Below are positions 5,555-52,647 of a DNA stretch of 64,000 nt, one piece after another. Position 1 is the stretch's first letter; each line of letters opens with the position of its first letter. A program made the translations under genes and the position numbers. The stretch spans positions 13,027-77,026 of the forward strand of contig JBGPCZ010000004.1 of NCBI GenBank assembly GCA_041482015.1, in the 5' to 3' direction. The notes below the pieces were generated by a model. The model worked only from the letters and a program-made list of their open reading frames with translations. It was not told the DNA's origin and searched no databases. This DNA is from Planctomycetota bacterium (GTDB lineage Bacteria; Planctomycetota; MHYJ01; JACPRB01).

Positions 5555-6565
5555 CTACCAGCGGATCGTGAGCCCGGCATGGAAGCCGAGATCGGGGCTG
5601 TTCACGAAGTTGAGGATGTTCTCGATGATCCCCGCCTCGAAGAGGAGGCCGGGCTCGATCTCCCACTTGAAGCCGCCGGCGACCTCGTTCGAGGGCAGCG
5701 CGAAGTCCCGCAGACCGTCGACCGCCCCGCCCGTGATCAGGTACTGGGCGACCAGCGAAAATCCCGGGAGACAGTTCCACTCCAGCGCGGCCAGGCCCGA
5801 CCACTGCCACGTCCGGAGCCTGATCCCGAAGAAATTGTCCCGGCCGTACCACGCCCCGATCGCGCCCGCGTAGAGTCGGAACCCCGACGACAGGTCCTTC
5901 GACACGGAGAGGGAGGCCGCCAGGTCGACCGGCGTCGCCTCCTCGAGATCCCCTCCGCCGCCCAGCTTCGCCCGGAGGGTGACCGCGTACGAGACGGCGG
6001 GCAGGAGGTCGTTTCCATACGTGACCACGTGCTGGAACGAGAGCATCGCCGACTCGACGAACGGCTGCGGGTCCTCGCGGTCGACGTGCACCGGCGGCCC
6101 CACGTCCGGCGAGTGCACGTTGAACACGTAGTCGTTGCGGGGGAACCGCGTGCGGGGGCCGAGCGCGAGCCCGAAGGTGTCGTGGAACCCGATGATGAGC
6201 GCGTCAAGACCGCCGCCCGTCCGCTCGCCGCTGACGATCTCCAATTCGACCCGGACATGGTCCGAGAGGCCCCAGCTGAACGAGACGTCCGAAGCGACCA
6301 CCTCGTAGTCGATCTCCCAGTAGTTGTTGGCCGCCAGGTCCTTGCCCCACTCCGACTGGACGTGGAGCTCGAAGGTGTGCTCCGAAAACGAGGCCGGGAA
6401 GTAGGGCGATAGGTTCATGCGGAGCGAGGAGAAGGGAGAGAGCGACGTCTGGCGGAACGGCCCGTAGCCGACGTTGGGTTTCTGGAACCAGCTGCTGTCG
6501 TCGCCGGGTTCCTGGGCGGAGGCGGGGAGGGCCGCGGCGAGCAACGCGAGGAGCGCGGCCGTCAT
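5555..6565 (-). CDS. Putative outer-membrane beta-barrel protein
   Basis: Signal peptide MTAALLALLAAALPASAQE. Alternating-hydrophobic strands. Aromatic C-terminus ...GLTIRW. Start at 6565 with GGTGGAG upstream; the listed N-terminal extension is Arg/Gly-rich. Confidence 0.6.
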   Translation of the reverse strand: MTAALLALLAAALPASAQEPGDDSSWFQKPNVGYGPFRQTSLSPFSSLRMNLSPYFPASFSEHTFELHVQSEWGKDLAANNYWEIDYEVVASDVSFSWGLSDHVRVELEIVSGERTGGGLDALIIGFHDTFGLALGPRTRFPRNDYVFNVHSPDVGPPVHVDREDPQPFVESAMLSFQHVVTYGNDLLPAVSYAVTLRAKLGGGGDLEEATPVDLAASLSVSKDLSSGFRLYAGAIGAWYGRDNFFGIRLRTWQWSGLAALEWNCLPGFSLVAQYLITGGAVDGLRDFALPSNEVAGGFKWEIEPGLLFEAGIIENILNFVNSPDLGFHAGLTIRW

Positions 6566-21044: not shown

Positions 21045-22526
21045 TCAGTTCCCCTTGAAGGCCGCCCTTACCCGCTCCGCGTCCGCGCCGGGGAGCCGCC
21101 GCAGGAGCTCCTCGCCCGCCGGCTCCTCCCCGCACGCCAGGTGGTAGAAGGCCGCAAGCGCCATGGCGCCCGGGTCCTCTTTTTTCGCCAGGGCGGCGGC
21201 GAGGTCGCGCCGGTCCCCGAGCTTGAAGTTCGCCCAGAGATAGTCGATCGTGCTTCCGTTGGACTCCAGCTTCATTGCGCCCGCCTCGTCGAGCGACGCG
21301 ATCGCCGCAAGCTGATCGATCAGCTTGAAGTGGAACCGCGCGGGATGTCCCTCGTGGATCTCCTTCCGGACGCGCTCCGCGAGAAGCTCGTCCCACGCGG
21401 CGAGCGCCTTCGGGTCGGCCGCCTTCGCGCGGGGTTTCTCGCCGGTCGCCAGCGCCGGCGCGGCGGGCTTCGGCTCCTCCGCCGGGACGGCCTTCTTCCT
21501 GGGCGGCGGGCGGAACGCGCCGGGCTTCTGCATCATGATGATGCAGGCGAAGACGGCGGTCGAGGCAACGTCGTCCTCGCCGCGGAGCGGCACGACGCCC
21601 TCGGCGGTCTGCGTCTTGATGAGGCGGTCGAGGTGCTCGGCCGTGAACTTCGCATAGACGTCGGGCCCCAGGCGGTGCATCGCCGCGGCCACGCTGAAGT
21701 AGTGGAGCGGCGCGAAGCCGTGGACACCGTCCTCGATCTTCTTGTACCGCTGCTCGATCCCCTTTTCGTACTTCGGAAAGAGCGGATGGCTGGTCTGGCC
21801 GGTCGCGAGGAGCGCCATGAGGACCCACGACGCGCGGGCCATCGCGGCATCGCCCACGCCGTTGTCGGTGCCGTAGCGGACGCCCATGCCGTCGGAGAGC
21901 GTCTCGAGGTTCTTCTGGGCCTTCTCCATCATGGGCCCGATCCTGATCCCGAGGGACTTGAGCTCAAGGAAGGCGCCGTAGATCATCGTGGTGACCATCC
22001 CGAGGTCCTGGCCGCCGCCCTTCTTGTTGTAGTTGTCCTCCTTCCACATCCGGAGGTGGTGGCACCAGCCGCCCGTCTCCTCCTGCTGCTTCTCGGCCAT
22101 CTTGAGCCCTTCCGCGAGCGCCTTTTCGACCTCGGGGGTCAGGCCGTACTTCGTCGCGTATTCCGCGAGGAAGATCATGGACATCGAGAGGTACCAGTTG
22201 CGGTTGAAGCCCTCGTCCTTGATCGCCTGGCAGCAGTACTTGACGCACTCCTCGAGCTCCTTCGGGCTCTCGCCGTCCATCATGAAGGCGAAGCCGCCCA
22301 TCATGTAGCCGCCCATCTTGGAGCCGATGACCCGCTTGGCCTTGTCGCTCCGAAGGTTGGCCTTCAGGTAGGCCATCGCCTTGGCGAGGGCCGGGGCGCA
22401 GATCTTGCACTTGCGCCAATCCGGATTGTGGGCTTCCTGCGCCGCCCGGGATTCCCGGGGGATACTGCCGACCGTCACCGTCGCGGCGAGAACCGCCGCG
22501 CACGCCATCCCGCTCCACCTGGACAC
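21045..22526 (-). CDS. Secreted hypothetical protein, possibly prenyltransferase/squalene-oxidase-like alpha/alpha toroid plus a C-terminal helical domain
   Basis: 493-aa ORF with normal composition. GTG start at 22526 preceded by AGGAGG. Signal peptide. GGW.HH-type repeats. The product name is tentative. Confidence 0.6.
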   Translation of the reverse strand: MSRWSGMACAAVLAATVTVGSIPRESRAAQEAHNPDWRKCKICAPALAKAMAYLKANLRSDKAKRVIGSKMGGYMMGGFAFMMDGESPKELEECVKYCCQAIKDEGFNRNWYLSMSMIFLAEYATKYGLTPEVEKALAEGLKMAEKQQEETGGWCHHLRMWKEDNYNKKGGGQDLGMVTTMIYGAFLELKSLGIRIGPMMEKAQKNLETLSDGMGVRYGTDNGVGDAAMARASWVLMALLATGQTSHPLFPKYEKGIEQRYKKIEDGVHGFAPLHYFSVAAAMHRLGPDVYAKFTAEHLDRLIKTQTAEGVVPLRGEDDVASTAVFACIIMMQKPGAFRPPPRKKAVPAEEPKPAAPALATGEKPRAKAADPKALAAWDELLAERVRKEIHEGHPARFHFKLIDQLAAIASLDEAGAMKLESNGSTIDYLWANFKLGDRRDLAAALAKKEDPGAMALAAFYHLACGEEPAGEELLRRLPGADAERVRAAFKGN

Positions 22527-35433: not shown

Positions 35434-35760
35434 GTGAGCAACGTGGCGCAGGTGTCGGAGCAGGCGTTCGACGCGGAAGTCCTGAAGTCGAAGACCCCGG
35501 TGCTGGTGGACTTTTTCACCACGTGGTGCGGGCCGTGCAAGGCGCTCGCCCCGGTGGTGGACGAGATCGCCAAGGACCTGACCGGCAAGCTGAAGGTCGT
35601 GAAGGTCGATCTCGACGAGGCGAACGACCTCGCCGCCACGCTCGGAATCACGTCGGTGCCCACGCTCGTCCTTTTCCAGGACGGCAAGGAGGCGACCCGG
35701 CGGACGGGCTCCGGCCCGAAGCGGGACATCCTCGCTTTCGTCCAGACGGTCGTAAAGTAG
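35434..35760 (+). CDS. trxA: Thioredoxin
   Basis: 108 aa with the WCGPC active site, and VPTLVLFQDG. GTG start preceded by GGAGGA. Confidence 0.9.
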   Translation: MSNVAQVSEQAFDAEVLKSKTPVLVDFFTTWCGPCKALAPVVDEIAKDLTGKLKVVKVDLDEANDLAATLGITSVPTLVLFQDGKEATRRTGSGPKRDILAFVQTVVK

Positions 35761-35852
35761 GAATGGAAGTGGGAATAAACGCCGGGCACCGGCCCGTTTG
35801 AGTCATTGGCTGTTGCGGATGGAATGGATGGAATGAACGAGTGGAGGCGATG

Positions 35853-36497
35853 ATGAGGAAATTCGCGGTGGCGGCGGTGGTCCTGGCGTTCGCCAGTCTC
35901 GCGCTGGCGAGGACCGAGGAGGAGACCGTCGCGGTCAAGGTCACGGTCAAGGGCATGAGCTGCCCCACGGGCTGCGGCGCCAAGGTGGCGAAGAGCCTGC
36001 AGGGGATCGAGGGCGCGAAAGAGGTGAAGCTGGCCGACTTCGAGAAAGGCCTCTTCACCGTCTCGTTCGACGCGAAGACGTCGGTCAAGCCTTCGGTGAT
36101 CGAGAAGGCGATCGGCACGGGCTTCGAAGTGACGAAGGTCGAGGCGACGCTCACGGGGACCGTGGCGCGCGTCGAGAAGGCGCTCGTCCTGACGACCGCG
36201 TCGGGCGCGAAGTACACGCTCGCGAACGCCGGCGACGACAAGTGCTGCGACGAGAAGGCCGACGCCGCGAAGGCCGCGAAGCCGGTCGAGGAGCCCAAGA
36301 AGGCGGAGACGGCCAAGAAGGAAGACGACTGCGAGTGCTGCAACGCGAAGAACGTGGTCGCAAAGATCGAGGGGCTGCTGAAGGAAGGCAAGACCTCGAT
36401 CAAGGCGGCCGGCGTGCTGAGCGAGTGCTGCCAGGGGTCGCTGACCCTGGGCCTCACCTCGGCCGTGGCGGTCGAGGCGAAGAAGGCGACGAACTAA
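35853..36497 (+). CDS. Secreted HMA-like (heavy-metal-associated) protein with CxxxC site and Cys-Cys-rich C-terminal domain
   Basis: Signal peptide. VKVTVKGMSCPTGCGAKV is an HMA fold with C-PTG-C in place of CxxC. C-terminal half carries CC, CECC and CC pairs. The start could be 35850 or 35853. Confidence 0.7.
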   Translation: MRKFAVAAVVLAFASLALARTEEETVAVKVTVKGMSCPTGCGAKVAKSLQGIEGAKEVKLADFEKGLFTVSFDAKTSVKPSVIEKAIGTGFEVTKVEATLTGTVARVEKALVLTTASGAKYTLANAGDDKCCDEKADAAKAAKPVEEPKKAETAKKEDDCECCNAKNVVAKIEGLLKEGKTSIKAAGVLSECCQGSLTLGLTSAVAVEAKKATN

Positions 36498-36515
36498 CTC
36501 GAGAAGGATCTCACA

Positions 36516-36554
36516 ACGGCCCCGGAGGGTGACCTCCGGGGCCGTTTTCTTTTT
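36516..36554 (+). terminator. Rho-independent terminator
   Basis: 13-bp stem ACGGCCCCGGAGG-GTGA-CCTCCGGGGCCGT followed by TTTCTTTTT. Confidence 0.85.
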
Positions 36555-36650
36555 GGAGATCTGTAGAAGCACGTAACGAGCATCTCCGGACTACCATGCG
36601 AAAGCCGCGCGCAAGGCCACAGGAGATGTGGGGACAAGACACGAGACGGG

Positions 36651-37226
36651 TCAGACGTCTCCCGGGGTCGCGGGGAGAGAGGAATCGAAAAGGCGGCGCG
36701 CCCGGGCATGCCAGGCCGCGATCGCCTGGAGGCCGGTGGGAACCGGCGACCCCCACTCGACACGGACGGGCTTGGAACGGATCGGAAAGCCTTCGATGCC
36801 GAATTCGGTCAGCATCGCGCAGCGGTAGGGAGAGTTGAGATGTCGCAGCGCCAGGCCAAGCCCCGATGCCGCCCGCAAGAGGTCGGTCACGTCCTCGTTC
36901 GCAGCGTCCGCCTCCGCGTGAACGAGGGTCGGCTCCAACGAAGGGCGTCGTCGGAGCGTCTCGGCGAGCCGGATCCGCTCCGTGACGGAATCCCATCGGA
37001 TCTTCCGGACCCGCGCGGCACCGTTCCGAAAGTCGACCCCGGGTGGAACGAACAAGGTCCATGTCGACCAGGGGCCGACGGGGGGATAGTACCAGAGACG
37101 GAAGCTGGGAACGAGGCCGGACGGGACGGGCTCGCAGGAGCGTTCCAGCGCCGTGACCGCCCGGCGTTCGACGAGCGCGAACCGCGATTCCACGTCATCC
37201 GGCTCCCGGAAGGGCAGGATTCCCAT
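36651..37226 (-). CDS. Hypothetical protein
   Basis: Balanced amino-acid composition, unlike the overlapping frames. Start placed at Met52 of the listed ORF. No recognisable motif and a weak RBS. Confidence 0.4.
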   Translation of the reverse strand: MGILPFREPDDVESRFALVERRAVTALERSCEPVPSGLVPSFRLWYYPPVGPWSTWTLFVPPGVDFRNGAARVRKIRWDSVTERIRLAETLRRRPSLEPTLVHAEADAANEDVTDLLRAASGLGLALRHLNSPYRCAMLTEFGIEGFPIRSKPVRVEWGSPVPTGLQAIAAWHARARRLFDSSLPATPGDV

Positions 37227-37344
37227 CCGGATGATTTTATCAGGCAACGTCGCCCCTTGCCTGCCTCCGGGAGCGAGTGGATGGAGCGGATGGAATGGAA
37301 GACTACGTGACTCACGGTATACTGGGTGGGCCGAGCGGCCTGGA

Positions 37345-37734
37345 ATGTCGACACCATCCGGCGATCGTCTGGAGATCATCGAAAGGGAGGGCTACCTCGA
37401 GGCCCGCCATCTGGGGACTTACGAGGCCAGCTCCTACAAAGTCCTGATGGAGCGATCGGTGCAGGCGTGCAAGGAACGCACCATTCCACTACTCCTGGTC
37501 GATCTCACGGACCTCGCCGGGTTCTTCCCCTCCACCGTGGATCGCTATGAAATGGGAGCGCTGGGCGCACGCCTGGCCGCCGACCTCGCCAAGGTCGCCA
37601 TCGTCGGGACCCGGGAGCAGATCGAGCGCAAATTCTCAACGCTGGTCGCGCGGAACCGGGGATTGAACATCGACGCCTTCACCGACCGGGAGGAGGCGGT
37701 GCGGTGGCTGCTGGACCCGAAACAGCGCGCGTAG
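37345..37734 (+). CDS. STAS/SpoIIAA-like domain protein
   Basis: 129 aa. The pattern LEIIEREGYLEARHLG...LLLVDLTDL...KVAIVG resembles stand-alone STAS-like domains. The upstream part of the listed ORF was rejected. Confidence 0.5.
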   Translation: MSTPSGDRLEIIEREGYLEARHLGTYEASSYKVLMERSVQACKERTIPLLLVDLTDLAGFFPSTVDRYEMGALGARLAADLAKVAIVGTREQIERKFSTLVARNRGLNIDAFTDREEAVRWLLDPKQRA

Positions 37735-37737
37735 CCC

Positions 37738-38295
37738 TCACGCTCTCCACTTGATGTTGCAGCCGGCGCTCGGCTTCTGGTAGGCGGGGACGGGCTTGTC
37801 GGCCAGCACGAGGTCGATCGCGGCGCGGAGGTCCTGGCCGGTCACCGGGATGCCGTTGCCGGGGCGGCTGGAGTCGAACTGGCCGCGGTAGACGAGCGTG
37901 CGCGCCGCATCATAGAGAAAGAAGTCGGGCGTGCAGGCCGCCTGGTAGGCGCGCGCGACCGCCTGCGTCTCGTCGTGGAGATACGGGAACCGGTAGTCCT
38001 TCCCTTTCGCCTCGACCGCCATCTTCTCGGGCGAGTCGTCGGGGTAGCCGACGGCGTCGTTGGCGTTGATCGCGACGATCGCGAGGTCCCTCTTCTCGTA
38101 GTCCTTCCCGAGCTGCACCAGGCCGTCCTGCACGTGCTTGACGTACGGGCAGTGGTTGCAGATGAACATCACGAGGAGCCCCTTCTTCGCCTTGACGTCG
38201 GAGAGCGCGACGCGCCGGCCGCTCACCGAATCGGTCAGCGAGAAGTCGGGCGCGGGGGTGCCAAGGGGGTTCATCGCGGACGGGGTGAGTCCCAT
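37738..38295 (-). CDS. Thioredoxin-fold redoxin (AhpC/TSA-like thiol-disulfide oxidoreductase, CNHC motif)
   Basis: APDFSL.D..G..V.L, then LLVMFICNHCPYV. No signal peptide. Confidence 0.75.
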   Translation of the reverse strand: MGLTPSAMNPLGTPAPDFSLTDSVSGRRVALSDVKAKKGLLVMFICNHCPYVKHVQDGLVQLGKDYEKRDLAIVAINANDAVGYPDDSPEKMAVEAKGKDYRFPYLHDETQAVARAYQAACTPDFFLYDAARTLVYRGQFDSSRPGNGIPVTGQDLRAAIDLVLADKPVPAYQKPSAGCNIKWRA

Positions 38296-38326
38296 GGTTC
38301 TTCCCTCGAAATCATGGATGGACTGA

Positions 38327-38500
38327 TTACCGCGTGGATCCCGTCGGAGTCGGTGATTCCGAGGGCGTCACAGCGGCCGCCGCAGCCTTGCGCTGGGCCT
38401 CGAGCCTGGATTCGCGGCGCATGGTGCGGACGATGTAGAAGGTGATCGAGCCCATCAGGGTGTAGATGAAGGCGAGAAGGATGTAGATGGAGTATCTCAT
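38327..38500 (-). CDS. Small single-pass membrane protein (57 aa), not in the ORF track
   Basis: My translation: MRYSIYILLAFIYTLMGSITFYIVRTMRRESRLEAQRKAAAAAVTPSESPTPTGSTR. One TM helix followed by a basic stretch. Lies 31 nt upstream of the redoxin on the same strand. Weak RBS. Confidence 0.35.
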   Translation of the reverse strand: MRYSIYILLAFIYTLMGSITFYIVRTMRRESRLEAQRKAAAAAVTPSESPTPTGSTR

Positions 38501-38630
38501 CCCGGCCGCTTCGGACTCACCGAGCCCGTATTTGCAGCTGTCTCAGGCCATCAACGCGACAGTGATGCTGGCGGCGAAAAAGTTCATCCGTTCTTCTTAT
38601 ATCTGGACCCGAACCGGGGGGCAACCGAAA

Positions 38631-39302
38631 TCACTTGAGCTGGTCGCCGAAGACCTTCTTGAACTTCTCGACCTTCGGGGCGATGACGAGCTGGCAGTAG
38701 CGCTCGTCGGGGTTGAGCTTGAAGTAGTTCTGGTGGTAGTCCTCCGCCTTGAAGAACTTCGTGAACGGGCTGATCTCGGTGACGATCGGCCCGTTGAAAG
38801 CGCCGGCGGCGTCCAGCTCCTTCTTGTACTTCTCCGCGAGCGCCTTCTGCCCGTCGCCGTGATAGAAGACCACCGACCGGTACTGCGTCCCCGAGTCGTG
38901 GCCCTGGCGGTTGAGCGTGGTCGGGTCGTGCGTCTTCCAGAAGACCTCGAGCAGCTTCGCGAAGGAGATCTTGGACGGGTCGTACGTGATATGGCAGACC
39001 TCGGCGTGGCCGGTCTCGCCGCTGCAAACCATCCGGTAGGTCGGGTTCTCCACCTTCCCGCCCGAGTAGCCCGACTCGACCGAGACGACGCCCTTCAGAT
39101 CCTGGAAGACCGCCTCCACGCACCAGAAGCAGCCCTCGCCGAACGTGGCGCGCTCGAGGCCGGAGGGCGCGGGCGCCGGCGGGACGGGTGGCGGGAGCGG
39201 AGGCGGCGCTTTCAGATTCATGGAGGGACCCGGCGGCTCCTGTTTCTTTTCCGCGCACGCGGCCAGGGCGAGAAGGCCGGCGACGATCAGCAGGCGTCTC
39301 AT
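38631..39302 (-). CDS. msrA: Peptide-methionine (S)-S-oxide reductase MsrA, lipoprotein form
   Basis: GCFWC active site, GYSGG and HAEV motifs. Lipobox LLALAAC after start Met19 of the listed ORF. Confidence 0.85.
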   Translation of the reverse strand: MRRLLIVAGLLALAACAEKKQEPPGPSMNLKAPPPLPPPVPPAPAPSGLERATFGEGCFWCVEAVFQDLKGVVSVESGYSGGKVENPTYRMVCSGETGHAEVCHITYDPSKISFAKLLEVFWKTHDPTTLNRQGHDSGTQYRSVVFYHGDGQKALAEKYKKELDAAGAFNGPIVTEISPFTKFFKAEDYHQNYFKLNPDERYCQLVIAPKVEKFKKVFGDQLK

Positions 39303-39388
39303 TCCAGTTCTTATAACACCGGCAGGCCCGCGCCCATTCGAATAAATCGTTTCCATCCCGCGTTCAGAAGCGTAGAGTACCCCTCGCC

Positions 39389-40435
39389 ATGACCTCCTGC
39401 GACATCTGGAGCCAGGCCAAGAGCGGCGGCTGAGCCGCCAAGCTGAGCCCGCAGGTCCTGCGGGAGCTCGTCCAATCGATCTCGCCGAAGGGTCACCCCG
39501 ACCTCCTGGTCGGCCTGAACCCGTCGGACGACGCGGCGGTCTACCGCGTGACCGACGAGATCGCGATGGTCCAGACGGTCGACTTCATCACCCCCATCTA
39601 CCACGACCCTTACCTGTACGGACAGATCGCGGCGGCGAACTCGCTCTCGGACGTCTGGGCGATGGGCGGCCGGCCCGTCACCGCGATGAACATCTGCTGC
39701 TTCCCCGCCAAGGGAGTGGACACGGAGACGCTCGCGAAGATCCTCCAGGGCGGCCTTTCCAAGATCGAGGAAGGGGGCGCGGTGCTCGTCGGCGGCCACT
39801 CCGTCCGCGACGACGAGCTCAAGTACGGCTGCTCGGTCACCGGCTTCATCCACCCGAAGAAGATCGCCCTGAAGGGCGGCGCGAAGGCGGGCGACCGGCT
39901 GATCCTCACCAAGCCCCTCGGGAGCGGCGTCCACGTCACGGGAGCCAAGCGCGGCCTCCTCCCCGACGAGAAACTGCGTCGCGTCATGGAGACGCTCGCC
40001 CAGCTCAACAAGACGGCCGGCGAGACGATGATGGAATTCGAGGTCCGCGGGGCGACCGACATCACGGGCTTCGGCCTGGGCGGCCACGGCCTCGAGATGG
40101 CCCGCATCGCCCGGCTCGGTTTCCGAATCCACGCGGACTCGCTGCCCCTCTTCCCCGACACGATCCCGCTCCTCGAACAGGGCCTGACGACGGGCGCCAC
40201 CCCGGGCAACCTCGCGCTCATCCGGGACGGGATGAAGTACGACGCGGCCGTCACGGTGGCCGAGCAGGGCCTTTTCAGTGATCCGCAGACGTCGGGCGGG
40301 CTCCTGATCGCGATCCGCGCGAAGGATGCGGAGGCCCTTCTCAAGACGCTCCACGAGCGCGGGGTGAAGGACGCGAGGATCATCGGCGAGGCATTCGCCG
40401 CCGACACGCCCCACCTCCACGTGGTGAAAGGATAG
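39389..40435 (+). CDS. selD: Selenide, water dikinase (selenophosphate synthetase), selenocysteine-containing (UGA 39431..39433)
   Basis: One TGA interrupts an otherwise open frame. The read-through N-terminus SGG-U-AAKLSPQVL...DDAAVY matches the SelD glycine-rich loop. The rest is typical SelD (DFITPI..DPY..G.IAAANSLSDVWAMGG, PQTSGGLL). Confidence 0.8.
39445..39469 (+). other. Candidate bacterial SECIS hairpin for selD
   Basis: GAGCCCGCAG-GUC-CUGCGG(GA)GCUC starts 11 nt after the UGA. Its apex GCAGGUCCUGC resembles the E. coli fdhF SECIS apex GCAGGUCUGC. Confidence 0.55.
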
Positions 40436-40440
40436 GACCC

Positions 40441-40923
40441 ATGACGCAAGAATCCTTCTACGCGCTTAAGACGAAGAGCCTGGACGGCAGGGCTTCCGAC
40501 CTCAAGGACTATGCCGGCAAGGTCACGCTCGTCGTCAACGTCGCGAGCGAGTGTGGGTTCACGCCGCAGTACAAGGGCCTCGAGAAGCTCCACGGCGAGC
40601 TCAAGGACCGGGGCTTCGCGGTCCTGGGGTTCCCGAGCAACGACTTCGGCGGGCAGGAACCCGGCACGGCCGAGGAGATCCAGTCCTTCTGCTCCACGAA
40701 GTACCAGGTCACTTTCCCGATGTTCGAGAAGGGGGTGACCAAGGCAGGCGGCGGCCAGTCCGCGGTCTTCGCGAATCTCCAGGCGCAGTCGAAGGAGCTC
40801 CCCGACTGGAACTTCTGCAAGTACCTGGTCGGGAAGGACGGCCAGGTGGTGAAGTTCTTCAGGAGCAAGGTCAAGCCCGACGACCCGGGCCTGCGCAAGG
40901 AAATCGAGGCCGCCCTCGGGTAG
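40441..40923 (+). CDS. Glutathione peroxidase family protein (Cys type)
   Basis: NVASECGFT, LGFPSNDFGGQEPG and WNFCKYLV motifs. Starts 5 nt after the selD stop. Confidence 0.9.
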   Translation: MTQESFYALKTKSLDGRASDLKDYAGKVTLVVNVASECGFTPQYKGLEKLHGELKDRGFAVLGFPSNDFGGQEPGTAEEIQSFCSTKYQVTFPMFEKGVTKAGGGQSAVFANLQAQSKELPDWNFCKYLVGKDGQVVKFFRSKVKPDDPGLRKEIEAALG

Positions 40924-40965
40924 CCGGCGTATACCAGTGATCAGGACACGAAAGGAAGAACCCTT

Positions 40966-41517
40966 ATGAGGACCGCTCTCGCGCTCTGCCTGCTGGCCGC
41001 GACGCAGGCCGTCGACCTCAAGGTGGGCGACGCCGCGCCGAAGTTCGAGTCGACCGACGACGCCGGCAAGGCGTGGAAGTCCGACGAGCACGTCGGGAAG
41101 AAGATCCTGGTCGTCTACTTCTTCCCAGCCGCCTTCACCGGCGGCTGAACCAAGCAGGCCTGCGGGTACCGCGACGACATGAAGTCGTTCGCGGACAAGG
41201 ACGTCGACGTGATCGGCGTCTCGGGCGACACGGTCAAGACGCAGGAGGCGTTCAAGAAATTCCACAAGCTGACCTTCACGCTCCTCGCCGACGAGAAGGG
41301 CGAGGTCGGCAAGGCGTTCGGTGTGCCGGTCAGCAAGGGCGGCACGGCGAAGGCGAAGGTCGACGACAATGACGAGGAGTTCATCCGCGGCGTGACGCTC
41401 AAGCGGTGGACATTCGTCCTGGGCAAGGACGGCAAGGTCGCCTACAAGAACACCGAGATCAAGACGCCGGCCGAGGACAGCAAGGCCGTGCTCGAGGTCA
41501 TCGCGAAGCTCAAATGA
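40966..41517 (+). CDS. bcp: Bcp/PrxQ-type peroxiredoxin with signal peptide, selenocysteine at the peroxidatic position (UGA 41146..41148)
   Basis: Listed ORFs 40966..41148 and 41179..41517 are in the same frame, separated only by a TGA. The joined sequence VVYFFPAAFTGG-U-TKQACGYRDDM aligns with E. coli Bcp VYFYPKAMTPGCTVQACGLRDNM. Confidence 0.8.
41161..41193 (+). other. Candidate SECIS region for the Sec-peroxiredoxin
   Basis: Two overlapping hairpins. UGCGG-GUA-CCGCG has its loop starting 18 nt after the UGA. CGCGACGAC-AUGAA-GUCGU(U)CGCG is a 9-bp stem. The functional one is unresolved. Confidence 0.35.
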
Positions 41518-42566
41518 AGCCGGCGTTGCTCCCACTCCTGGCCCTGGCGCTGGCGTCCTGCGACGGCTCCAGGCCGCCGACGGCGAAGGGCGGCGTTCCG
41601 GCCGAGCTGTGCCCGTGCGGCGCGGACCCCAATCGCGCCCAGATCGTTTCGAAAGAGTTCCTGAAGCCCGGCGACAGCCGCACGTTCTCGATCGAGTACG
41701 TCGGCCGCGTGGCAGAGATCCCCGCGGGAACGAAGAAGGTCCGACTGTGGTTCCCCGTCCCGCAGGACACGAATGTCCAGTCGATCAAGAACTTCACCTT
41801 CTCGAAGCCGCCGAAGCTCGGGAACGAGGCGAAGTACGGGAACAGGATCGCCTATTGGGAGATCGAGAACCCCGCGGGACCGGTCGAGATCACGATGAAG
41901 TTCGACGTCACGCGGATCGAGATCAAGACCGACCTGGCGGCGCTGAAGGACGAGGGACGCGACGAGGTGGGCTCGTTCGACGTCTTCCGCCGGGCCGACC
42001 GCCTCGTCCTCGTGGACAGCGGGACGGGGAAGCTCTCCGATGGCGTCTGCCAGGGGAAGACCTCGACGCTCGACAAGGCGCGGGCGATCTATGACCACGT
42101 GGTCTCGAAGATGACCTACGACAAGAACCACGAGGGCTGGGGGCGGGGCTCGACGAAGCACGCGTGCGAGGTGGGAAAGGGCAACTGCACCGACTTCCAC
42201 GCCCTTTTCAACTCGCTCTGCCGCTCCCAGGCGATCGCGAGCGGATTCGAGATCGGGCTCTACCTCCCTTATGAGCGGAAGTCCGACGAGAAGCCCGGGA
42301 GCTACCACTGCTGGGCGCTCTTCCGCCTGCCCGGGAAGACGTGGGTGCCGGTCGACTGCTCGGAGGCGAGCCGCGCCCCCGCGCGGCGCGACTATTTCTT
42401 CGGGAGCCTGACGTCCAACCGCGTGACGCTCTCCACGGGCCGCGACCTCACGCTGGCGCCCGAGCAGGAGGGTGCGCCCCTCAACTTCTTCCTCGAGCCC
42501 TACGCCGAGGCGGACGGCAGGCCGGTAGTGGCCGCGAAGACCTGGTCGTTCAAGGACCTGGATTGA
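41514..42566 (+). CDS. Transglutaminase-like (Cys-protease fold) lipoprotein
   Basis: Lipobox LALASC. Core GKGNCTDFHALF, then SYHCWA and VPVD (Cys-His-Asp arrangement). ATGA overlap with the peroxiredoxin stop. Confidence 0.7.
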   Translation: MKPALLPLLALALASCDGSRPPTAKGGVPAELCPCGADPNRAQIVSKEFLKPGDSRTFSIEYVGRVAEIPAGTKKVRLWFPVPQDTNVQSIKNFTFSKPPKLGNEAKYGNRIAYWEIENPAGPVEITMKFDVTRIEIKTDLAALKDEGRDEVGSFDVFRRADRLVLVDSGTGKLSDGVCQGKTSTLDKARAIYDHVVSKMTYDKNHEGWGRGSTKHACEVGKGNCTDFHALFNSLCRSQAIASGFEIGLYLPYERKSDEKPGSYHCWALFRLPGKTWVPVDCSEASRAPARRDYFFGSLTSNRVTLSTGRDLTLAPEQEGAPLNFFLEPYAEADGRPVVAAKTWSFKDLD

Positions 42567-42575
42567 CGGGCGCGA

Positions 42576-43736
42576 TCAGACCGCGGTGACCGGCACGCGG
42601 TGCCAGCCGTTGTAGAGGTACCCTTTGAAGTTCCACGGCGCCGCCTCGGGCTGCGTGACGCCGCGCGAATCCGTGGCGCGCACCGCGAGGGTCCGCGCGC
42701 CCTTCGCCACCCCGACCTCCGCCTCCCAGAGACGCCACGTCCAGGGCGCGTCCTTCCCCTCGAGCGACGCGTCCGTCCATGTCGCGCCGCCGTCCGCCGT
42801 GACCTGCACCTTCGAGAGCGGGGCGGGGGAAAGCGCGTAGCCGCGGACCTTCACCTTCCCCTCCGCGACCTCCGCGCCCGCGCGCGGGCTGCAGATGGCC
42901 GAGCTGATCGCGTACTCGAGGATCGGCTCCTTCTCCTCCCATTTCACGGTCTCCGCCGTGACCTCCGGCGGGAAGAGCTTGTAGTCGCGCGCCGAGTAGG
43001 GGTTGTCGCTCGTCCGGTCGCTCACGACGATCCGGCCCAGCCACTTCACGCTCCGCGCGCCGACGTAGCCGGGCACGATCGTCCGGGCCGGCGCGCCGTG
43101 CTCCGCCGCGAGCGGCCGGCCGTTCATCTCCACCGCGACCAGCGTCTCCGCCCGCATCGCCTTCTCGAGGGGGATCGCCGCGCCGAACCGGGACTTCTTC
43201 CCCGCGAACATCGGCTCGTCGAGGCCCTCGAACCAGGCGAAGCGCGCGCCGTTCTTCACGCCGGCGCGGAAGAGGAGCTCCGCGAGGCGCGGGCCGCGCC
43301 ACTCCGCGTTCCCGATCGCGCCCGCGTCCCACTGGACCCCCGCGATCGGCTTCGTCTTCGCGTGCTCGATCCGGCGGTTCCCCGCGCACTGGAGCGTCGC
43401 CGCGACGGTCGAGCTCCCGAACTCGCCCTTCAGCCGATCGAGCGGGATCGAAAGCGGCCGCTCGACCATCCCTTCCACCGAGAGGCTCCAGTGGGCCGGG
43501 TCGACGACCGGGACCGGCCCGTGCGAGCGGACGTAGAAGTGCGGAAGCGGCGTGATCCAGGAGGTCGACAAGTGCTCGAGGGCGGGCTCCGCGTTGAACG
43601 GAGTCTCCATCCGGGTCAGGAGCTCCTTCGCGCCGTCCGCCTCCCGCGCCGGGATCGAACAGCCGGGGAATCCCAGCAGCGCCAGCACGCCGCCCGCACC
43701 GGCCGCCTTGAGGATCTCCCGCCGGGTCGGTCTCAT
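42576..43736 (-). CDS. Sulfite-oxidase-family molybdopterin oxidoreductase, TAT-exported
   Basis: MRPTRREILKAAGAGG signal. FYVRSHG. LQCAGNRR with the Mo-ligand Cys. SUOX dimerisation-type C-terminal domain. Confidence 0.8.
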   Translation of the reverse strand: MRPTRREILKAAGAGGVLALLGFPGCSIPAREADGAKELLTRMETPFNAEPALEHLSTSWITPLPHFYVRSHGPVPVVDPAHWSLSVEGMVERPLSIPLDRLKGEFGSSTVAATLQCAGNRRIEHAKTKPIAGVQWDAGAIGNAEWRGPRLAELLFRAGVKNGARFAWFEGLDEPMFAGKKSRFGAAIPLEKAMRAETLVAVEMNGRPLAAEHGAPARTIVPGYVGARSVKWLGRIVVSDRTSDNPYSARDYKLFPPEVTAETVKWEEKEPILEYAISSAICSPRAGAEVAEGKVKVRGYALSPAPLSKVQVTADGGATWTDASLEGKDAPWTWRLWEAEVGVAKGARTLAVRATDSRGVTQPEAAPWNFKGYLYNGWHRVPVTAV

Positions 43737-46138: not shown

Positions 46139-49100
46139 ATGGGCGTCAGCCGCCGGGATTTCCTTAAGCTCTCCGCGGCGGGCGCGTTCGTCACGCCCTT
46201 CGGGTTCGATCTCACCCCCGCCCTCGCCGAGGCGAAGAAGTTCAAGATCGCCCGCACCACCGAGACCCGCTCGATCTGCCCCTACTGCTCCGTCTCGTGC
46301 GGCGTCATCGTCCACACGCGGGGCGAGGGAAAGAACACCCAGCGGCAGATCGTCCACATCGAGGGCGACCCGGATCACCCCGTCAACCTGGGCACGCTCT
46401 GCCCCAAGGGCGCCACGCTCAAGCACTACGTCGACAACGACCGGCGCCTCGACCGCGTGCGCCACCGCGCCCCCGGCGCGAGCGACTGGACCTTCATCTC
46501 GTGGGACAAGGCGATCGACATGATCGCCCAGCGGATCAAGAAGACCCGCGACGCGGACTTCATCGCGAAAGACAGGGACGGCCGCACCGTCAACCGCCTC
46601 GACTCGATCGCCGCCATCGGCGGCTGCACCGACACGAACGAGTTCAACTGGCTCTTCCAGAAAGTCGCGCGGGCCTGGAGCATCGCCCACCTGGAGCAGC
46701 AGTCGCGGATATGACACGGTCCCACGGTGGCCAGTCTGGCCCCCACCTTCGGACGCGGCTCGATGACGAACGGATGGACCGACATCCGGAACACCGATGT
46801 CGTCCTCTGCATGGGCGGCAACCCCGCCGAGAATCACCCGTGCGGGTTCAAATGGGCGATCGAGGCCAAGAAGAAGCGGGGCGCGAAGATCGTCTGCATC
46901 GACCCGCGCTACAACCGCACGGCCGCCGTCTCGGACTGCTTCGTCCAGATCCGCTCGGGGAGCGACATCGCGTTCCTGGGCGGACTCATCCGCCAGGCGA
47001 TCGAGGACAAGCTCTTTCACGAGGAGTACGTCAAGCTCCACACGAACGCTCTCTTCCTCCTGGAGCCCGGGTCGGAGCTCGGGACCGACGGGCTCTTCGG
47101 TGGATTCGATTCCGAGGCGAAGAAGTACGACAAGTCGAAATGGAAATACCAGCTCGATGAAAAGGGGCTCGCGAAGCGGACGGCCTCGCTCGACGATCCC
47201 GCCTGCGTCTTCCAGCACCTGAAGCGCCACTACTCCCGCTACACGCCGGAGGTCGTCGCCGATATCGCCGGCTGCACGAAGGAGGATTTCCTCAAGGCCG
47301 CGGCGATCATCAACTCGACCGGCACGGCCAGCCGAGCGGGGACGATCATGTACGCGCTCGGCTGGACGCAGCACTCCACGAGCGTCCAGATCATCCGCGC
47401 CGCGGCGATCCTCCAGCTCCTCCTCGGCAACATCGGCCGCGCGGGCGGCGGCGTGAACGCGCTCCGCGGCCACGCGAACATCCAGGGGGGCACCGACCAC
47501 GGGGTCGCGTACCACGCGCTCCCGGGCTACATGGCGATCCCGCGGGCCACCGACCTGGACGTCGCGACGTACCTCAAGCGGATCACGCCGGAGTCGCTCT
47601 CGGCCACGTCGATGAATTACTGGGCCAACGCGCCGAAGTTCTTCGTCTCGCTCATGAAGTCGATGTACGGCGGCGCCGCCACCGAGAAGAACGAGTGGGG
47701 CTTCCACTGGCTCCCCAAGATCGATCCCGCCGTGAACTACTCGTGGGTCTACATCTTCGACAAGATGTACAAGGGCGAGATCAAGGGGTTCATCGACTTC
47801 GGCATGAACCCCGTCGCGAACGGCCCCAACACCGAGAAGATCATCGCCGCGCTTTCGAAGCTCGACTGGATGGTGATCGCGGAGGCGTTCGAGACGGAGA
47901 CCGCCTCCTTCTGGACCGTCGCCAAGGAGTCCCCGAAGACGGAAGTCTTCATGCTCCCGGCCGCGATCTTCGCCGAGAAGGACGGCTCGTTCACCAACTC
48001 GTCGCGCTGGGCGCAGTGGAAGCACAAGGCGACGGAGCCCCCCGGCGAGGCGAGGACCGACCAGGAGATCCTCGCGCGGATCTTCGTCCGGGTCCGCGAG
48101 CTCTACGAGAAGGAGAGCGGGGCGTTCCCCGACGCGATCCGCGCGCTCGACTGGTCGTACAAGAACCCCTACGCCCCGTCGCTCGAGGAGATCGCGAAGG
48201 AGATCAACGGCCGGGATCTCGCGACCGGGAAGCAGCTCAACGCGTTCAGCGAACTCAAGGCCGACGGCACGACCGCGAGCGGCAACTGGCTCTACTGCGG
48301 GAGCTTCACCGAGGCCGGCAACATGATGGCCCGGCGCGACCCGCGCGACCCGTCGGGCCTCGGACGGCACGAGAACTGGGCATGGAACTGGCCGATGAAC
48401 CGTCGCGTCCTCTACAACCGGGCGGGCGCGGACGCCCAGGGAAAACCCTGGGACCCGACGCGATCGGGCATCACGTGGGACGGGTCGAAGTGGATCGGCG
48501 ACGTGCCCGACCTCAAGGCGGACAGCAAGCCCGAGGACGGGCTCGGCGCGTTCATCATGCTTCCCGAGGGCGTGGCCAAGCTATGGGCCCCGGACTTTGC
48601 CGACGGCCCCTTCCCCGAGCACTACGAGCCGATGGAGCACCCGACCGAGGAGAACCCACTCCACAAGCAGACGACGAGCCCCGTCGCGCCCGTCTTCAAG
48701 AGCGACATGGACCGGCTCGGAACCCCCAAGGAGGGCTACGACATCGTCGCGACGACCTTCCGGCTCACCGAGCACTTCCACTACTGGACGAAGCACGTGG
48801 CGCCGGCCGCGATGCTGCAGTCGGAGTTCTTCGTGGAGATCCCCGAGGGCCTGGCCCTGGAGAGAGGGATCCAGAACGAGAACCGCGTGCGCCTCTCGAC
48901 GCCGCGGGGGTCCATCGAAGGGCGCGCGCTCGTGACGAAGCGCATCCACGGAATGAAGGTCGCCGGGAAGACCGTGTGGCAGGTCGCGATCCCGATCCAC
49001 TGGGGCTTCCAGGGGCGGACCGAGAAGGGGAACGCCGCGGTCAAGGGCGGCCGCGGCCCCATGGCAAACCTGCTGACGGCGAGCGTCGTCGACCCGAACT

Positions 49101-49156
49101 CGTTCACGCCCGAGTACAAGACCTTCCTCGTGAAACTGGAGAAGGTCTCGTCATGA
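46139..49156 (+). CDS. fdnG: Formate dehydrogenase-N/O type alpha subunit, TAT-exported, selenocysteine-containing (UGA 46712..46714)
   Basis: RRDFLK signal and CPYCSVSCG Fe-S motif. ...QSRI-U-HGPTVASLAPTFGRG matches E. coli FdnG ...ARV-U-HGPTVASLAPTFGRG. Listed ORFs 45998..46714 and 46727..49156 share the frame. Confidence 0.9.
46726..46747 (+). other. Candidate SECIS hairpin for fdnG
   Basis: GGUGGCCA-GUC-UGGCC(CCC)ACC starts 11 nt after the UGA. UGACACGG... and the GUC-containing apex parallel the E. coli fdhF element. Confidence 0.6.
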
Positions 49157-50730
49157 GCGGGGCCCTGGAGATCAAGAACACGAGCGCGACGGGCGCGCAC
49201 ACCACCGTGCGCGAGGACGACCAGCTCTGCATGCTGATCGACACGACCACGTGCATCGGCTGCAAGGCCTGCGAGGTGGCGTGCGTGGAGTGGAACGACC
49301 TCCACATCGAGCCCGAATACGGCCAGCGGCTGCTCCACTCCTACCAGACGATGGCGGACATGACGCCCTCGTACTGGAACCTGATCAAGTTCGACGAGAT
49401 CGTGGTGGACTCCCAGCGCCAGCCGCCTCCCGTCGCGGCCGGCGGGGGATTCCTCCCTTCCGCGTTCGCGACCGGGGAGGTGGCGCCCTCCGGCGAGGCC
49501 GTGATGATGCTCATGCGCAAGGACATGTGCATGCACTGCGCGGAGCCGGGCTGCATGATCGCCTGTCCCGCGGAAGGAGCCATCGTCCAGTACACCAACG
49601 GGATCGTCGACTTCCAGCAGGAGAATTGCATCGGCTGCGGCTACTGCATGACAGGCTGCCCCTTCAACATCCCGAAGTTCGACGAGAAGTCCCAGCGCGT
49701 CTTCAAGTGCACCATGTGCAGCGATCGCGTTTCCAACGGCCTTGGGCCGGCGTGCGTGAAGTCGTGCCCCACGGGCTGCCTTGAGTTCGGCACCAAGAAG
49801 GAGATGCGCCACCACGCGGAGCACCGCGCGGACCAGGTGAGGAAGGACGGCTTCCCGAAGGCGGACGTGTACGATCCGGCGGGCGTCGGCGGGACGGGCG
49901 TGATCTACGTCCTCCACCACGCGGACCGGCCCGAGCTTTACGGAAACCTGCCGCGCGAGCCGAAGATCGACCCGCAGATCCGGTTCTGGAAGGGCCCCCT
50001 CAAATGGGTGGGCGGACTCGCGTTCGGCGCGTCGCTCGTCGCGGCCGCGGTCCACTATCTCACGTCGGGGCCGCGACGGACCGAGTCCCACGCGCCGCCG
50101 GCGCCGGCGGCCCCGAAGAAGGAGATCGTCCGCTACACGCTCTTCGAGCGCCTGCTCCACTGGACGGTGGCGTTCACGTTCCTCTACCTGTCGCTCACGG
50201 GGCTGGCGATCTTCACGCCGAAGCTCGCATGGCTCATGAGCGTGTTCGGCGGCGGGCAGGTCGTGCGCGCGTGGCATCCGATCGTCGGCGCGGTGTTCGT
50301 CGGCGCGGTCCTCATCCAGTTCTTCAAATGGTTCAAGGACCTTCGAATCACGCCCGACGACCGCGTCTGGCTCAAGCGCATGCGCGATTACCTCGCGGGT
50401 CGCGACGAGAAGGTGCCGCCGACCGGCCGCTTCAACGCGGGGCAGAAGCTCCTCTTCTGGACGCAGGTGATCCTCGGCCTCGTGCTCCTCGCGAGCGGCA
50501 TCCCGGTCTGGTTCCCGAAGGAGTTCTCGCGCGATCTCCGGCTCTGGTCGATCCTCGTCCACTCCGCGTCGGCGGCGGCGGCGATCCTCTCGCTCGTCGT
50601 CCACATCCACATGGCGGTCTTCATCACCAAGGGCGCGGTCCGGGCGATGACCGAGGGGAAGGTGAGCGAGGAGTGGGCGCGCCACCACCACGGCAAGTGG
50701 GCGGACGAGAAACTCGGCCCTCCTGCATGA
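49153..50730 (+). CDS. fdnH: Fused formate dehydrogenase beta (4x[4Fe-4S], FdnH) and gamma (cytochrome b556, FdnI) subunit
   Basis: The N-terminal half has ferredoxin Cys clusters (CIGCKACEVAC, CMHCAEPGCMIACP, CIGCGYCMTGCP, CTMCSDR). The C-terminal half aligns with E. coli FdnI (HWTV, FNAGQK, HIHMA, EGKVS..WA..HH). One uninterrupted frame. Confidence 0.85.
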   Translation: MSGALEIKNTSATGAHTTVREDDQLCMLIDTTTCIGCKACEVACVEWNDLHIEPEYGQRLLHSYQTMADMTPSYWNLIKFDEIVVDSQRQPPPVAAGGGFLPSAFATGEVAPSGEAVMMLMRKDMCMHCAEPGCMIACPAEGAIVQYTNGIVDFQQENCIGCGYCMTGCPFNIPKFDEKSQRVFKCTMCSDRVSNGLGPACVKSCPTGCLEFGTKKEMRHHAEHRADQVRKDGFPKADVYDPAGVGGTGVIYVLHHADRPELYGNLPREPKIDPQIRFWKGPLKWVGGLAFGASLVAAAVHYLTSGPRRTESHAPPAPAAPKKEIVRYTLFERLLHWTVAFTFLYLSLTGLAIFTPKLAWLMSVFGGGQVVRAWHPIVGAVFVGAVLIQFFKWFKDLRITPDDRVWLKRMRDYLAGRDEKVPPTGRFNAGQKLLFWTQVILGLVLLASGIPVWFPKEFSRDLRLWSILVHSASAAAAILSLVVHIHMAVFITKGAVRAMTEGKVSEEWARHHHGKWADEKLGPPA

Positions 50731-52131: not shown

Positions 52132-52647
52132 ATGAAGCTTCTCCACTCCCTCTTCCTCTCTCTCTTTCTGGCCCTTCCCGGCCTGCCCGCCGCCGCCCAG
52201 GAATCGAAAACCGCGCGGGAGCAGCTCAAGGAATCCCTCGCAAAGGCGAAGGAGGGAAAGAAGCGCGTCCTCCTCACCTTCGGCGGGGCCGGCTGAAGCT
52301 GGTGCAAGATCTTCGAGGCCTGGAAGGCCCGGGAGGAGGTCGCCCCGATCCTCGCAAAGGACATCGTCAACCTCTACATCGACACGTCCAAGGTCGCCGG
52401 CGGGAAGGACCTTCACGCGTCCTATCCGAAGAGCCAGAAGGGCGGCATCCCCTGGTTCGTCATCCTCGACGGCGAGGGCAAGGAGCTCGGGGATTCGAAC
52501 GGCCCGAACGGAAACATCGGATGCCCCGACACCGACGAGGAGATCGCGGCGTTCATCGACCTTTTGAAGAAGGTCCGCCTCTCAATGACCGACGACGACC
52601 TTGCTGCGCTCAAAAAGTCGCTGGTGGCCCGCCGGGAGAAGAAATGA
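52132..52647 (+). CDS. Secreted thioredoxin-fold selenoprotein with U-x-x-C redox motif (UGA 52294..52296); absent from the ORF track
   Basis: ATG 52132 to TGA 52645 is open except for one TGA. Signal peptide MKLLHSLFLSLFLALPGLPAAAQ. RVLLTFGGAG-U-SWCK occupies the position of the Trx C-x-x-C (WC..CK). GIPWFVILDGEGKEL is typical of the Thioredoxin_7-like fold. GC3-rich codon usage continues across the TGA. Confidence 0.7.

Follow-up and report, generated by a model that had tools for sequence, protein, structure and literature searches.

The DNA analyzed here, the window, is a stretch of 64,000 nucleotides (nt) from a Planctomycetota bacterium (assembly GCA_041482015.1, contig JBGPCZ010000004.1, positions 13,027 to 77,026), and all coordinates are counted from its first letter. 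It has about 67% G+C, carries the planctomycete signature genes PSCyt1/PSCyt2/PSD1 and DUF1501, and is identical in sequence to contig JBGPPJ010000084.1 (metagenome-assembled genome GCA_041488475.1) and to one JGI metagenome contig. Our subject is a string of four genes, selD, gpx, bcp, and a gene encoding a transglutaminase-like (TGase) protein, together with the redox genes around it. An earlier note on this DNA described the region as an envelope-directed peroxide and methionine-sulfoxide defense module, in which the selenium-donor gene is co-transcribed with its selenoenzyme. All the genes in its list are present as open reading frames (ORFs) with their translations, and the families of the named genes were confirmed by Pfam and NCBIfam.

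The four-gene string and its surroundings

The first gene of the string, selD (39389-40435, plus strand), encodes a selenophosphate synthetase with domains PF00586 and PF02769 and a TIGR00476 score of 349.8 bits (cut-off, 125), and a TGA that we read as a selenocysteine (Sec) codon is found at codon 15 (39431-39433). Five nucleotides further on lies gpx (40441-40923, plus strand), which encodes a cytoplasmic peroxidase of the Cys type (Pfam GSHPx, PF00255; 3e-34, 117.5 bits). The motifs VASECGFT, GGQEP, and WNF are visible in GPx and correspond to the peroxidatic Cys plus the catalytic residues Gln, Trp, and Asn, and its score falls below the NCBIfam equivalog cut-offs. Based on motifs only, we take VASECGFT to hold the peroxidatic Cys and EIQSFCSTKY a candidate resolving Cys, and the enzyme is presumably thioredoxin dependent. 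After another 42 nt comes bcp (40966-41517, plus strand), the product of which is an exported peroxiredoxin with a predicted Sec (TGA, 41146-41148) at the peroxidatic position of the PxxxTxxC/U motif. The resolving Cys is located at +5 (U-TKQA-C) and is kept in all the homologues shown in the alignment. By its motif the protein belongs to the PrxQ/BCP subfamily; judged by its scores, it is not an equivalog of the characterized enzymes, as it stays below the NCBIfam equivalog cut-offs (102.5 versus 140 for PRK09437, 62.6 versus 260 for PrxQ, and 34.8 versus 270 for PrxU). The fourth gene (41514-42566, plus strand) overlaps the end of bcp by 4 nt (ATGA) and encodes a TGase-like cysteine-protease lipoprotein (PF01841, Transglut_core; 1e-20, 74 bits), with a Cys225-His265-Asp281 triad that does not vary across 32 homologues. 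Searching the PDB by sequence gave no match for this protein, but a fold search with its AF2 model (pLDDT 87) did, the best PDB match being 3ISR (TM 0.59/0.70), an uncharacterized protease, with TgpA (6G49) also found. Members of this TGase family have a CC-x4-CC motif in the lipoprotein linker.

The four genes thus lie on one strand with junctions of 5, 42, and -4 nt, in agreement with the spacers or overlaps of 5-42 nt reported for them before. Inspection of the sequence showed Shine-Dalgarno-like sequences upstream of the starts of gpx and bcp. No plus-strand terminator-like site was found between the four genes, and the only plus-strand match lies inside the TGase ORF. The TGase stop is only 9 nt from the stop of a convergent gene for a SorA/SUOX-like molybdoenzyme with a twin-arginine motif (42576-43736, minus strand), so that there is no room for separate terminators. 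In the one relative that shares the string (L033), the spacing is nearly equal (10, 43, and -4 nt). Based on spacing rules, we infer that the four genes are likely to be co-transcribed, and selD is very probably co-transcribed with the Sec-peroxiredoxin gene. The transcription unit would probably start in the 86-nt msrA/selD intergenic region (39303-39388). Inspection of this region showed TATAAC (39312-39317) and, after it, a small hairpin whose loop is of the GNRA type, and the sequence TATAAC-RCCGSMAGGC (39312-39329) recurs 5' of selD in the relatives L069 (~1890-1915) and L070 (~5995-6015). This shared sequence may represent a selD promoter or leader.

Several other redox genes are found around the string. 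On the plus strand, trxA (35434-35760) encodes a cytoplasmic thioredoxin (WCGPC motif; Pfam Thioredoxin, 1e-32) and is followed by the gene for an exported, HMA-like Cys-rich protein (35841-36497; Pfam HMA, 27 bits; MSCPTGC plus CC, CECC, and ECC motifs). A terminator-like plus-strand hairpin (36515-36546), with a 14-bp stem and then a T-run, closes this unit. On the minus strand there is a gene for a cytoplasmic CNHC redoxin with an AhpC/TSA fold (37738-38295; Pfam and NCBIfam), and upstream of it a hydrophobic ORF of 57 amino acids (38327-38500), which public assemblies call as a gene. Next to these lies msrA (38631-39302, minus strand), which encodes a Cys-type lipoprotein (LAAC lipobox, GCFWC site; Pfam PMSR, 3e-67; TIGR00401, 212 bits). 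The longest msrA ORF is 38631-39356, and the likelier start of the lipoprotein is M19 at 39302; msrA is divergent from selD, and the 86-nt spacer holds if M19 is the start. Downstream of the string, on the plus strand, fdnG (46139-49156) encodes the Tat-exported catalytic subunit of a formate dehydrogenase (TGA at 46712), followed by a gene (49153-50730) for a fusion of the beta (4Fe-4S) and gamma (cytochrome b561) subunits of 525 amino acids and then by fdhE. The last of these plus-strand genes (52132-52647) encodes an exported thioredoxin (Trx)-like protein of the Thioredoxin_7/DsbH type with a U-S-W-C motif (TGA at 52294).

Signal peptides and lipoboxes were judged by eye. They were seen on the HMA-like protein, MsrA, Bcp, TGase, and the Trx-like protein, and FdnG has a twin-arginine signal, so the earlier statement that several members carry such signals was borne out; none was seen on TrxA, the CNHC redoxin, SelD, or GPx. 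The window yielded no tRNA gene, and a Pfam scan of 30 of its ORFs detected neither a SelA nor a SelB domain, so selA, selB, and selC are outside the window, as had been noted. We also saw no DsbD/CcdA electron importer in the window.

Predicted selenocysteine codons and their exchange with cysteine

Four in-frame TGAs (39431, 41146, 46712, and 52294) span 12,864 nt, which agrees with the four Sec codons in 12.9 kb counted earlier, and the proposal that they are recoded also fits our results: all four UGAs are best read as Sec codons. In SelD, SGG-U-AAK aligns with SSG-C-AAK, the Cys motif of Aquifex SelD (2YYE/2ZOD), as part of the glycine-rich N-terminal loop G-x-G-U/C-x-x-K, where homologues have SGGCAAK. 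The U in PAAFTGG-U-TKQAC of Bcp matches the peroxidatic Cys of 2YWN (FTQVCTKEMC), and the U in GAG-U-SWC of the Trx-like protein matches the first Cys of the CxxC of 3FK8. The FdnG UGA is also at the catalytic Cys/Sec column of its family. Protein conservation continues on both sides of each UGA, and a hairpin is predicted downstream of each. As candidate bacterial Sec insertion sequence (SECIS) elements we accepted hairpins starting about 11-25 nt past the UGA with a G, usually GU, in the apical loop. Such hairpins were found in selD (39448-39464; CCCGCAG-GUC-CUGCGGG, 17 nt past the UGA), in bcp (41169-41194; 10-bp stem, loop AUGAA, 23 nt past the UGA), and in fdnG, where Rfam finds a SECIS_3 element (46709-46767; 67.2 bits versus a gathering score of 63). 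The perfect 7-bp stem of the selD hairpin needs a Gln codon where Cys-type relatives encode Leu, Val, or Gly, and no hairpin of this type was present at the equivalent position in the four Cys-type relatives whose DNA was folded. The bcp hairpin has a fold-energy z score of -3.3, and the TGA and hairpin are at the same place in L033 and L075 (79% and 74% identity, respectively), the upper stem in L075 being different. For selD and bcp, scanning 39300-41600 with Rfam at a permissive cut-off gave no match to a SECIS family; as the Rfam SECIS models are lineage specific, this is not evidence against recoding. We also scanned the window for further in-frame TGAs in coding-like sequence and found no new candidate, with a strict filter that recovered only bcp of the four known ones. 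The sole other match, a TGA at 21047, was rejected as an ordinary gene junction.

Sec and Cys are exchanged among the homologues of these proteins. All the full-length SelD homologues of 58-86% identity that were examined have Cys (SGGCAAK), including the operon-sharing sister lineage (P0244); Sec is limited to the window species and probably one metagenomic fragment with 88% identity. Gene calls for most SelDs with 52-57% identity lack about 23 residues, as is seen for Sec forms, and L045 confirms this. In PrxQ, the column holds Cys in 119 of 122 aligned homologues and Sec in the remaining three (the window, L033, and L075), which lie within a subclade of 10 leaves, interleaved with Cys forms. 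For Bcp, three lineages have the Sec form and two others the Cys form. These proportions are unreliable, because gene callers split Sec forms, which are therefore underrepresented in protein databases. The sequence F-P-A-A-F-T-G-G-U (window 41110-41148) was seen only in Sec PrxQ, and Cys forms have Y-P-A-[SD]-x-T-x-G-C or near variants; two active-site substitutions thus track the Sec/Cys state.

The selD neighborhood in relatives and the history of the locus

Planctomycete-like metagenome contigs encode the closest SelD homologues (58-86% identity), and selD has redox neighbors there in several arrangements. In L069 and L070 (SelD, 61% identity), genes for an HMA-like protein, in L069 also a TlpA-like protein, and PrxQ on the minus strand are followed by selD and msrA on the plus strand. 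L075/L076 (58%) have the order of L069 and L070, with the same TGA in the PrxQ gene and a large gene inserted before selD. MsrA is encoded directly downstream of selD in L069, L070, and L075, and the HMA-like homologues beside Bcp and SelD in these loci (L069 82-717, L070 4748-5329, and L075 2806-3393) are 48-51% identical to the window protein. In L072-L074 (72%), selD is followed in the same direction by genes for a TlpA-like lipoprotein, an exported GPx, and an MsrB lipoprotein. In L038 (68%), a minus-strand AhpC gene is located next to selD and a gene for a TlpA-like lipoprotein, and in L071 (61%), a GPx gene with a product 70% identical to window GPx lies 2 kb away.

Counting the window, a thiol-peroxidase, Msr, or TlpA-like gene, most often for an exported protein, was found within 5 kb of selD in eight of eight distinct clade loci (58-100% identity), and in seven of these eight it lies within about 700 nt; the HMA-like gene is often nearby as well. 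Such neighbors were found at none of 58 other SelD loci (43-57% identity), nor at any of the 30 flanked on each side by 3 kb or more; these background loci came from pattern scans of GTDB representative genomes and JGI metagenomes and belong mostly to other phyla. By our arithmetic the Fisher probability is about 2e-8 if the loci were independent, which they are not, so we consider the enrichment a strong lead rather than a statistic. The linkage is kept through at least five different arrangements, which points to selection on the linkage rather than to inherited synteny alone. Apart from the source species (L030-L032), the exact string was found in a single relative (L033 and JGI 3300050821), with identities of 78% for SelD, 83% for GPx, 79% for Bcp, and 83% for TGase. 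The order in L033 is trxA, HMA-like, redoxin, small ORF, and msrA, then selD, gpx, bcp(U), TGase, and SUOX, and further on fdnG(U). The idea that selD-gpx-bcp-TGase is conserved among relatives therefore holds for this one relative of about 80% identity; what persists across rearrangements is the looser linkage of selD with peroxidase and Msr genes. On balance, we favor the explanation that selD(Sec)-gpx(Cys)-prxQ/bcp(Sec)-TGase forms one unit in a planctomycete redox neighborhood and is a variant of this clade-wide selD cluster.

The TGase gene has a history of its own. Five relatives with a TGase of 63-70% identity have a VWA gene (minus strand), an abhydrolase gene (plus strand), and, further on, TGase, and they have no selD, gpx, or bcp there. 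A trx gene lies directly upstream of TGase in three of the five (L035, L037, and one JGI contig); beyond TGase, the first two have SUOX, CarboxypepD_reg, and GSDH genes, all on the minus strand. The block from the HMA-like gene to bcp sits between trx and TGase only in the window lineage, and the fdnGHI-fdhE-trx-like(U) block is missing from L035. The four Sec genes thus fall in two lineage-specific blocks (35.8-41.5 kb and 46.1-52.6 kb). Both blocks are lacking in L035 and L037, which are otherwise syntenic, and between the two lies an ancestral core made up of TGase, SUOX-like, CarboxypepD_reg-like, and GSDH genes. In L034 (8001-15236) and L036 (8001-15215) there is no trx, and two or three TGase paralogues are interleaved with TusA, DsrE, and Meth_synt_2-domain genes, a hint of a sulfur-relay context for the family. 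Judging from these comparisons, TGase is an ancestral resident beside trx and is not among the conserved partners of selD. We considered that TGase, bcp, and selD act as a functional trio and rejected this, as the locus has TGase but no selD-gpx-bcp in five relatives, in three of which TGase comes right after trx. According to our model, TGase would already have been resident and would have become the last gene once selD-gpx-bcp was placed upstream.

This history raises the possibility that the neighborhood arose by accretion without function, through lineage-specific insertions at a variable locus with a general redox theme and no functional tie to selD. It would explain why the VWA-abhydrolase...TGase...SUOX-GSDH backbone is kept in relatives that lack selD, gpx, and bcp, and why order and orientation vary in every lineage. 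We consider it unlikely, because the same families stand beside this SelD clade in at least five arrangements (eight of eight loci versus none of 58 elsewhere), persistence through rearrangement is a classic sign of selected linkage, and junctions of 5, 42, and -4 nt resemble those of an operon.

Equally doubtful is a relic or mobile selenium island, that is, a block of selD and selenoprotein genes (Prx, MsrA, GPx, Trx-like, and FdnG) that later changed mostly from Sec to Cys. Every family in the clusters is a known selenoprotein family (PMC2398784, PMC13188914), the L035 backbone lacks both blocks that hold the four Sec genes, Bcp(U) is common to lineages with SelDs that are just 58% identical, and co-transfer of selenoprotein and Sec-trait genes has been documented (PMC1794560). 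However, we found no mobility genes, no shift in composition, and no selA, selB, or selC in the block, and the Sec forms are nested among mostly Cys homologues of Bcp and SelD, a pattern that by the usual logic favors recent changes from Cys to Sec.

Upstream of Cys-type selD in L038, L069, L071, and L075/L076 we observed a mini-ORF of seven codons (M-x-R-x-P-F/Y-G) that ends in an in-frame UGA (sites: L038 3041-3110 and 4869-4938, L069 2006-2075, L071 8924-8990, and L075 7912-7981); the second copy in L038 precedes another gene. At 17-22 nt past the UGA there is a 6-bp hairpin whose loop contains CGU. In the L075 hairpin, both partners are substituted in three of the six pairs, and pairing stays at 100%, compared to 27-53% in slid controls. 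A covariance model of the leader found no further copies in 920 kb of collected sequence, and the window has no such mini-ORF, its selD having a UGA-SECIS of its own. The element has the appearance of a UGA-SECIS leader. A degenerate tRNA-Sec was also considered and rejected, as neither ARAGORN nor Rfam gives a match at this site and the sequence is conserved in a codon-like pattern. It is possible, though rather improbable, that SelD in this clade is a built-in, selenium-gated part of the envelope antioxidant regulon, in which the supply of Sec-tRNA would gate translation of selD and the downstream genes, in the window through the in-gene UGA-SECIS and in Cys-type relatives through the leader ORF, which would then be an undescribed Sec-sensing leader. 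In L073, at 1343-1439 on the plus strand and 30 nt upstream of selD, we found a tRNA with tRNA-Sec architecture and a long variable arm (Rfam RF01852, 57.8 bits). With its anticodon GCA and discriminator U73 it matches the selC* tRNA-Cys class, which has been reported from other phyla, Planctomycetota not being listed (Mukai et al. 2017, PMC5389517).

Selenium trafficking, with the linked peroxiredoxin or the HMA-like protein as a selenide carrier for SelD, is still less probable. A gene for a Prx-fold protein recurs beside selD even as the Cys type, the HMA-like protein has CxxC and vicinal-Cys motifs, and there is a mammalian precedent in PRDX6-SEPHS2 (PMC11327102). PrxQ and the HMA-like protein have signal peptides, though, whereas SelD has none, and the linked family varies (PrxQ, AhpC, GPx, and TlpA), a variation more in keeping with a stress regulon than with a specific carrier. 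Finally, although public gene callers split SelD, Bcp, FdnG, and the Trx-like protein at the TGAs, it is extremely unlikely that these are true stops, pseudogene lesions, or assembly errors, as each lies exactly in the catalytic Cys/Sec column with both halves of the protein conserved and a hairpin behind it, the TGAs are repeated in independent assemblies and in relatives, and the essential N-terminal loop of SelD would be lost.

Proposed role and comparison with known systems

In the explanation that we favor, the window unit as a variant of the clade-wide cluster, SelD would make selenophosphate, and Sec would be inserted by the UGA and SECIS route into SelD itself, PrxQ, FdnG, and the Trx-like protein. 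As both SelD and PrxQ need Sec, we infer that the output of the operon depends on the selenium status of the cell. Across the clade, the cluster brings selD together with PrxQ, AhpC, GPx, MsrA, MsrB, TlpA-like reductases, and the HMA-like protein, most of them exported, and the likely logic is that selenium activation is co-expressed with defense of the envelope against peroxides and methionine sulfoxide. The reductant of exported PrxQ and MsrA may be the Trx-like(U) protein (52132), itself exported, a slot that the TlpA-like proteins may fill in relatives. The HMA-like Cys-rich protein may be a metal or selenium chaperone, with copper, mercury, or selenium as possible ligands.

Several points weigh against this explanation. 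SelD and GPx are cytoplasmic, whereas PrxQ, MsrA, and TGase are exported, and a direct biochemical coupling between them is not obvious; the view of an envelope-directed module is thus supported by the many exported redox neighbors and not by these two enzymes. Gene order is not conserved beyond one close relative. In L038, L069, L070, and L072 every linked gene is of the Cys type, so co-location does not need a selenoenzyme partner. More generally, the linked SelD has Cys in most relatives and the linked peroxidase in several. The spacing favors a unit of selD and bcp(U), in line with the suggestion that the selenium-donor gene is transcribed with a selenoenzyme gene, but these Cys-type pairs mean that this is not the whole reason for the linkage. 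The sample of eight clade loci is small and phylogenetically non-independent, and L069 and L070 were picked via Bcp matches, which is an ascertainment bias. A sigma-70 consensus scan of 35-43 kb, which is uninformative for Planctomycetota, predicted no promoter. With RNAalifold, the three Sec-type Bcp sequences gave zero strictly compensatory pairs in the hairpin, and the fold energy of the hairpin after the Trx-like UGA is not significant.

If our explanation is right, a gene for a SelD that depends on its own product and a gene for an exported Sec-peroxiredoxin would form a compact natural system for asking if bacteria tie selenium activation to oxidative-stress defense in the envelope. The relatives encode these enzymes in matched Cys and Sec forms within one gene context, which makes them suitable for studying the gain and loss of Sec. 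The clade-wide linkage also adds candidates (peroxidase, Msr, TlpA-like, and HMA-like proteins) to the short list of genes tied to selenium metabolism through genomic context. Should the leader ORF with its UGA and hairpin be regulatory, it would represent a new type of selenium-responsive translational control.

SelD, Prx (TxxU), Trx-like (UxxC), and FdhA are among the commonest bacterial selenoprotein families (PMC2398784, PMC13188914), and selD was previously shown to cluster with genes that either rely on selenium use or contribute to it (PMC1794560, PMC5322559, PMC13188914). Both selenoprotein operons and selD operons are already recognized in the literature. The selD partners described in reviews and in a SelD-neighborhood study are YedE, YedF, DUF3343, LysR_Se, SelU, YqeB/C, and SclA; the 2015 SelD-neighborhood study does not mention peroxiredoxin, thioredoxin, Msr, or Planctomycetes. 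In the selenoproteome and SelD-neighborhood papers searched, we found no operon of this kind and no Msr, peroxiredoxin, TlpA-like, or HMA-like partners of selD, which agrees with the earlier note's remark that the arrangement was not known as a described operon, and an earlier description is possible.

Compared to known systems, each part of the unit has a recognizable counterpart. With the Sec-Prx proteins (TxxU, PF00578; PrxU of Eubacterium acidaminophilum and the GOS Prx), the window enzyme shares the AhpC/TSA fold, a predicted Sec in a T-x-x-U motif, and, as a candidate, a SECIS directly downstream; it differs in being of the PrxQ/BCP type with a resolving Cys at +5, in having a signal peptide, and in being encoded by the third gene of a probable selD operon. 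The known selD contexts are selD-ybbB/selU, yedE/yedF/DUF3343, selD-sclA, and NADH-oxidoreductase-SelD fusions. None of those partners is present here, and none of selU/ybbB, yedE/yedF, yqeB/yqeC, or sclA is found among the Pfam-annotated window neighbors; the partners in the window clade are instead peroxidases, Msr, TlpA-like, and HMA-like proteins. As in selenoprotein operons (grdAB, prdBC, frhA-frhD-hdrA-glpC, and the metagenomic pairs Prx/SelW and Prx-like/AhpD-like), two Sec genes of the window share one probable unit, but one of the two encodes the selenium donor enzyme and the members do not belong to one pathway. Neisseria PilB/MsrAB with DsbD, and TlpA-type periplasmic reductases, serve in the repair of methionine sulfoxide and peroxide damage in the envelope. 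Those systems and the planctomycete clusters both encode exported MsrA/MsrB, TlpA-like thioredoxins, and peroxidases together, but the known systems have neither selD nor Sec. In the mammalian PRDX6-SEPHS2 relay, a peroxiredoxin is also tied to a selenophosphate synthetase (PMC11327102); PRDX6 is a cytosolic 1-Cys enzyme whereas window PrxQ is exported, so this resemblance is a lead only. All the component families are known, and what appears new against the papers searched is the looser selD cluster that recurs among the relatives.

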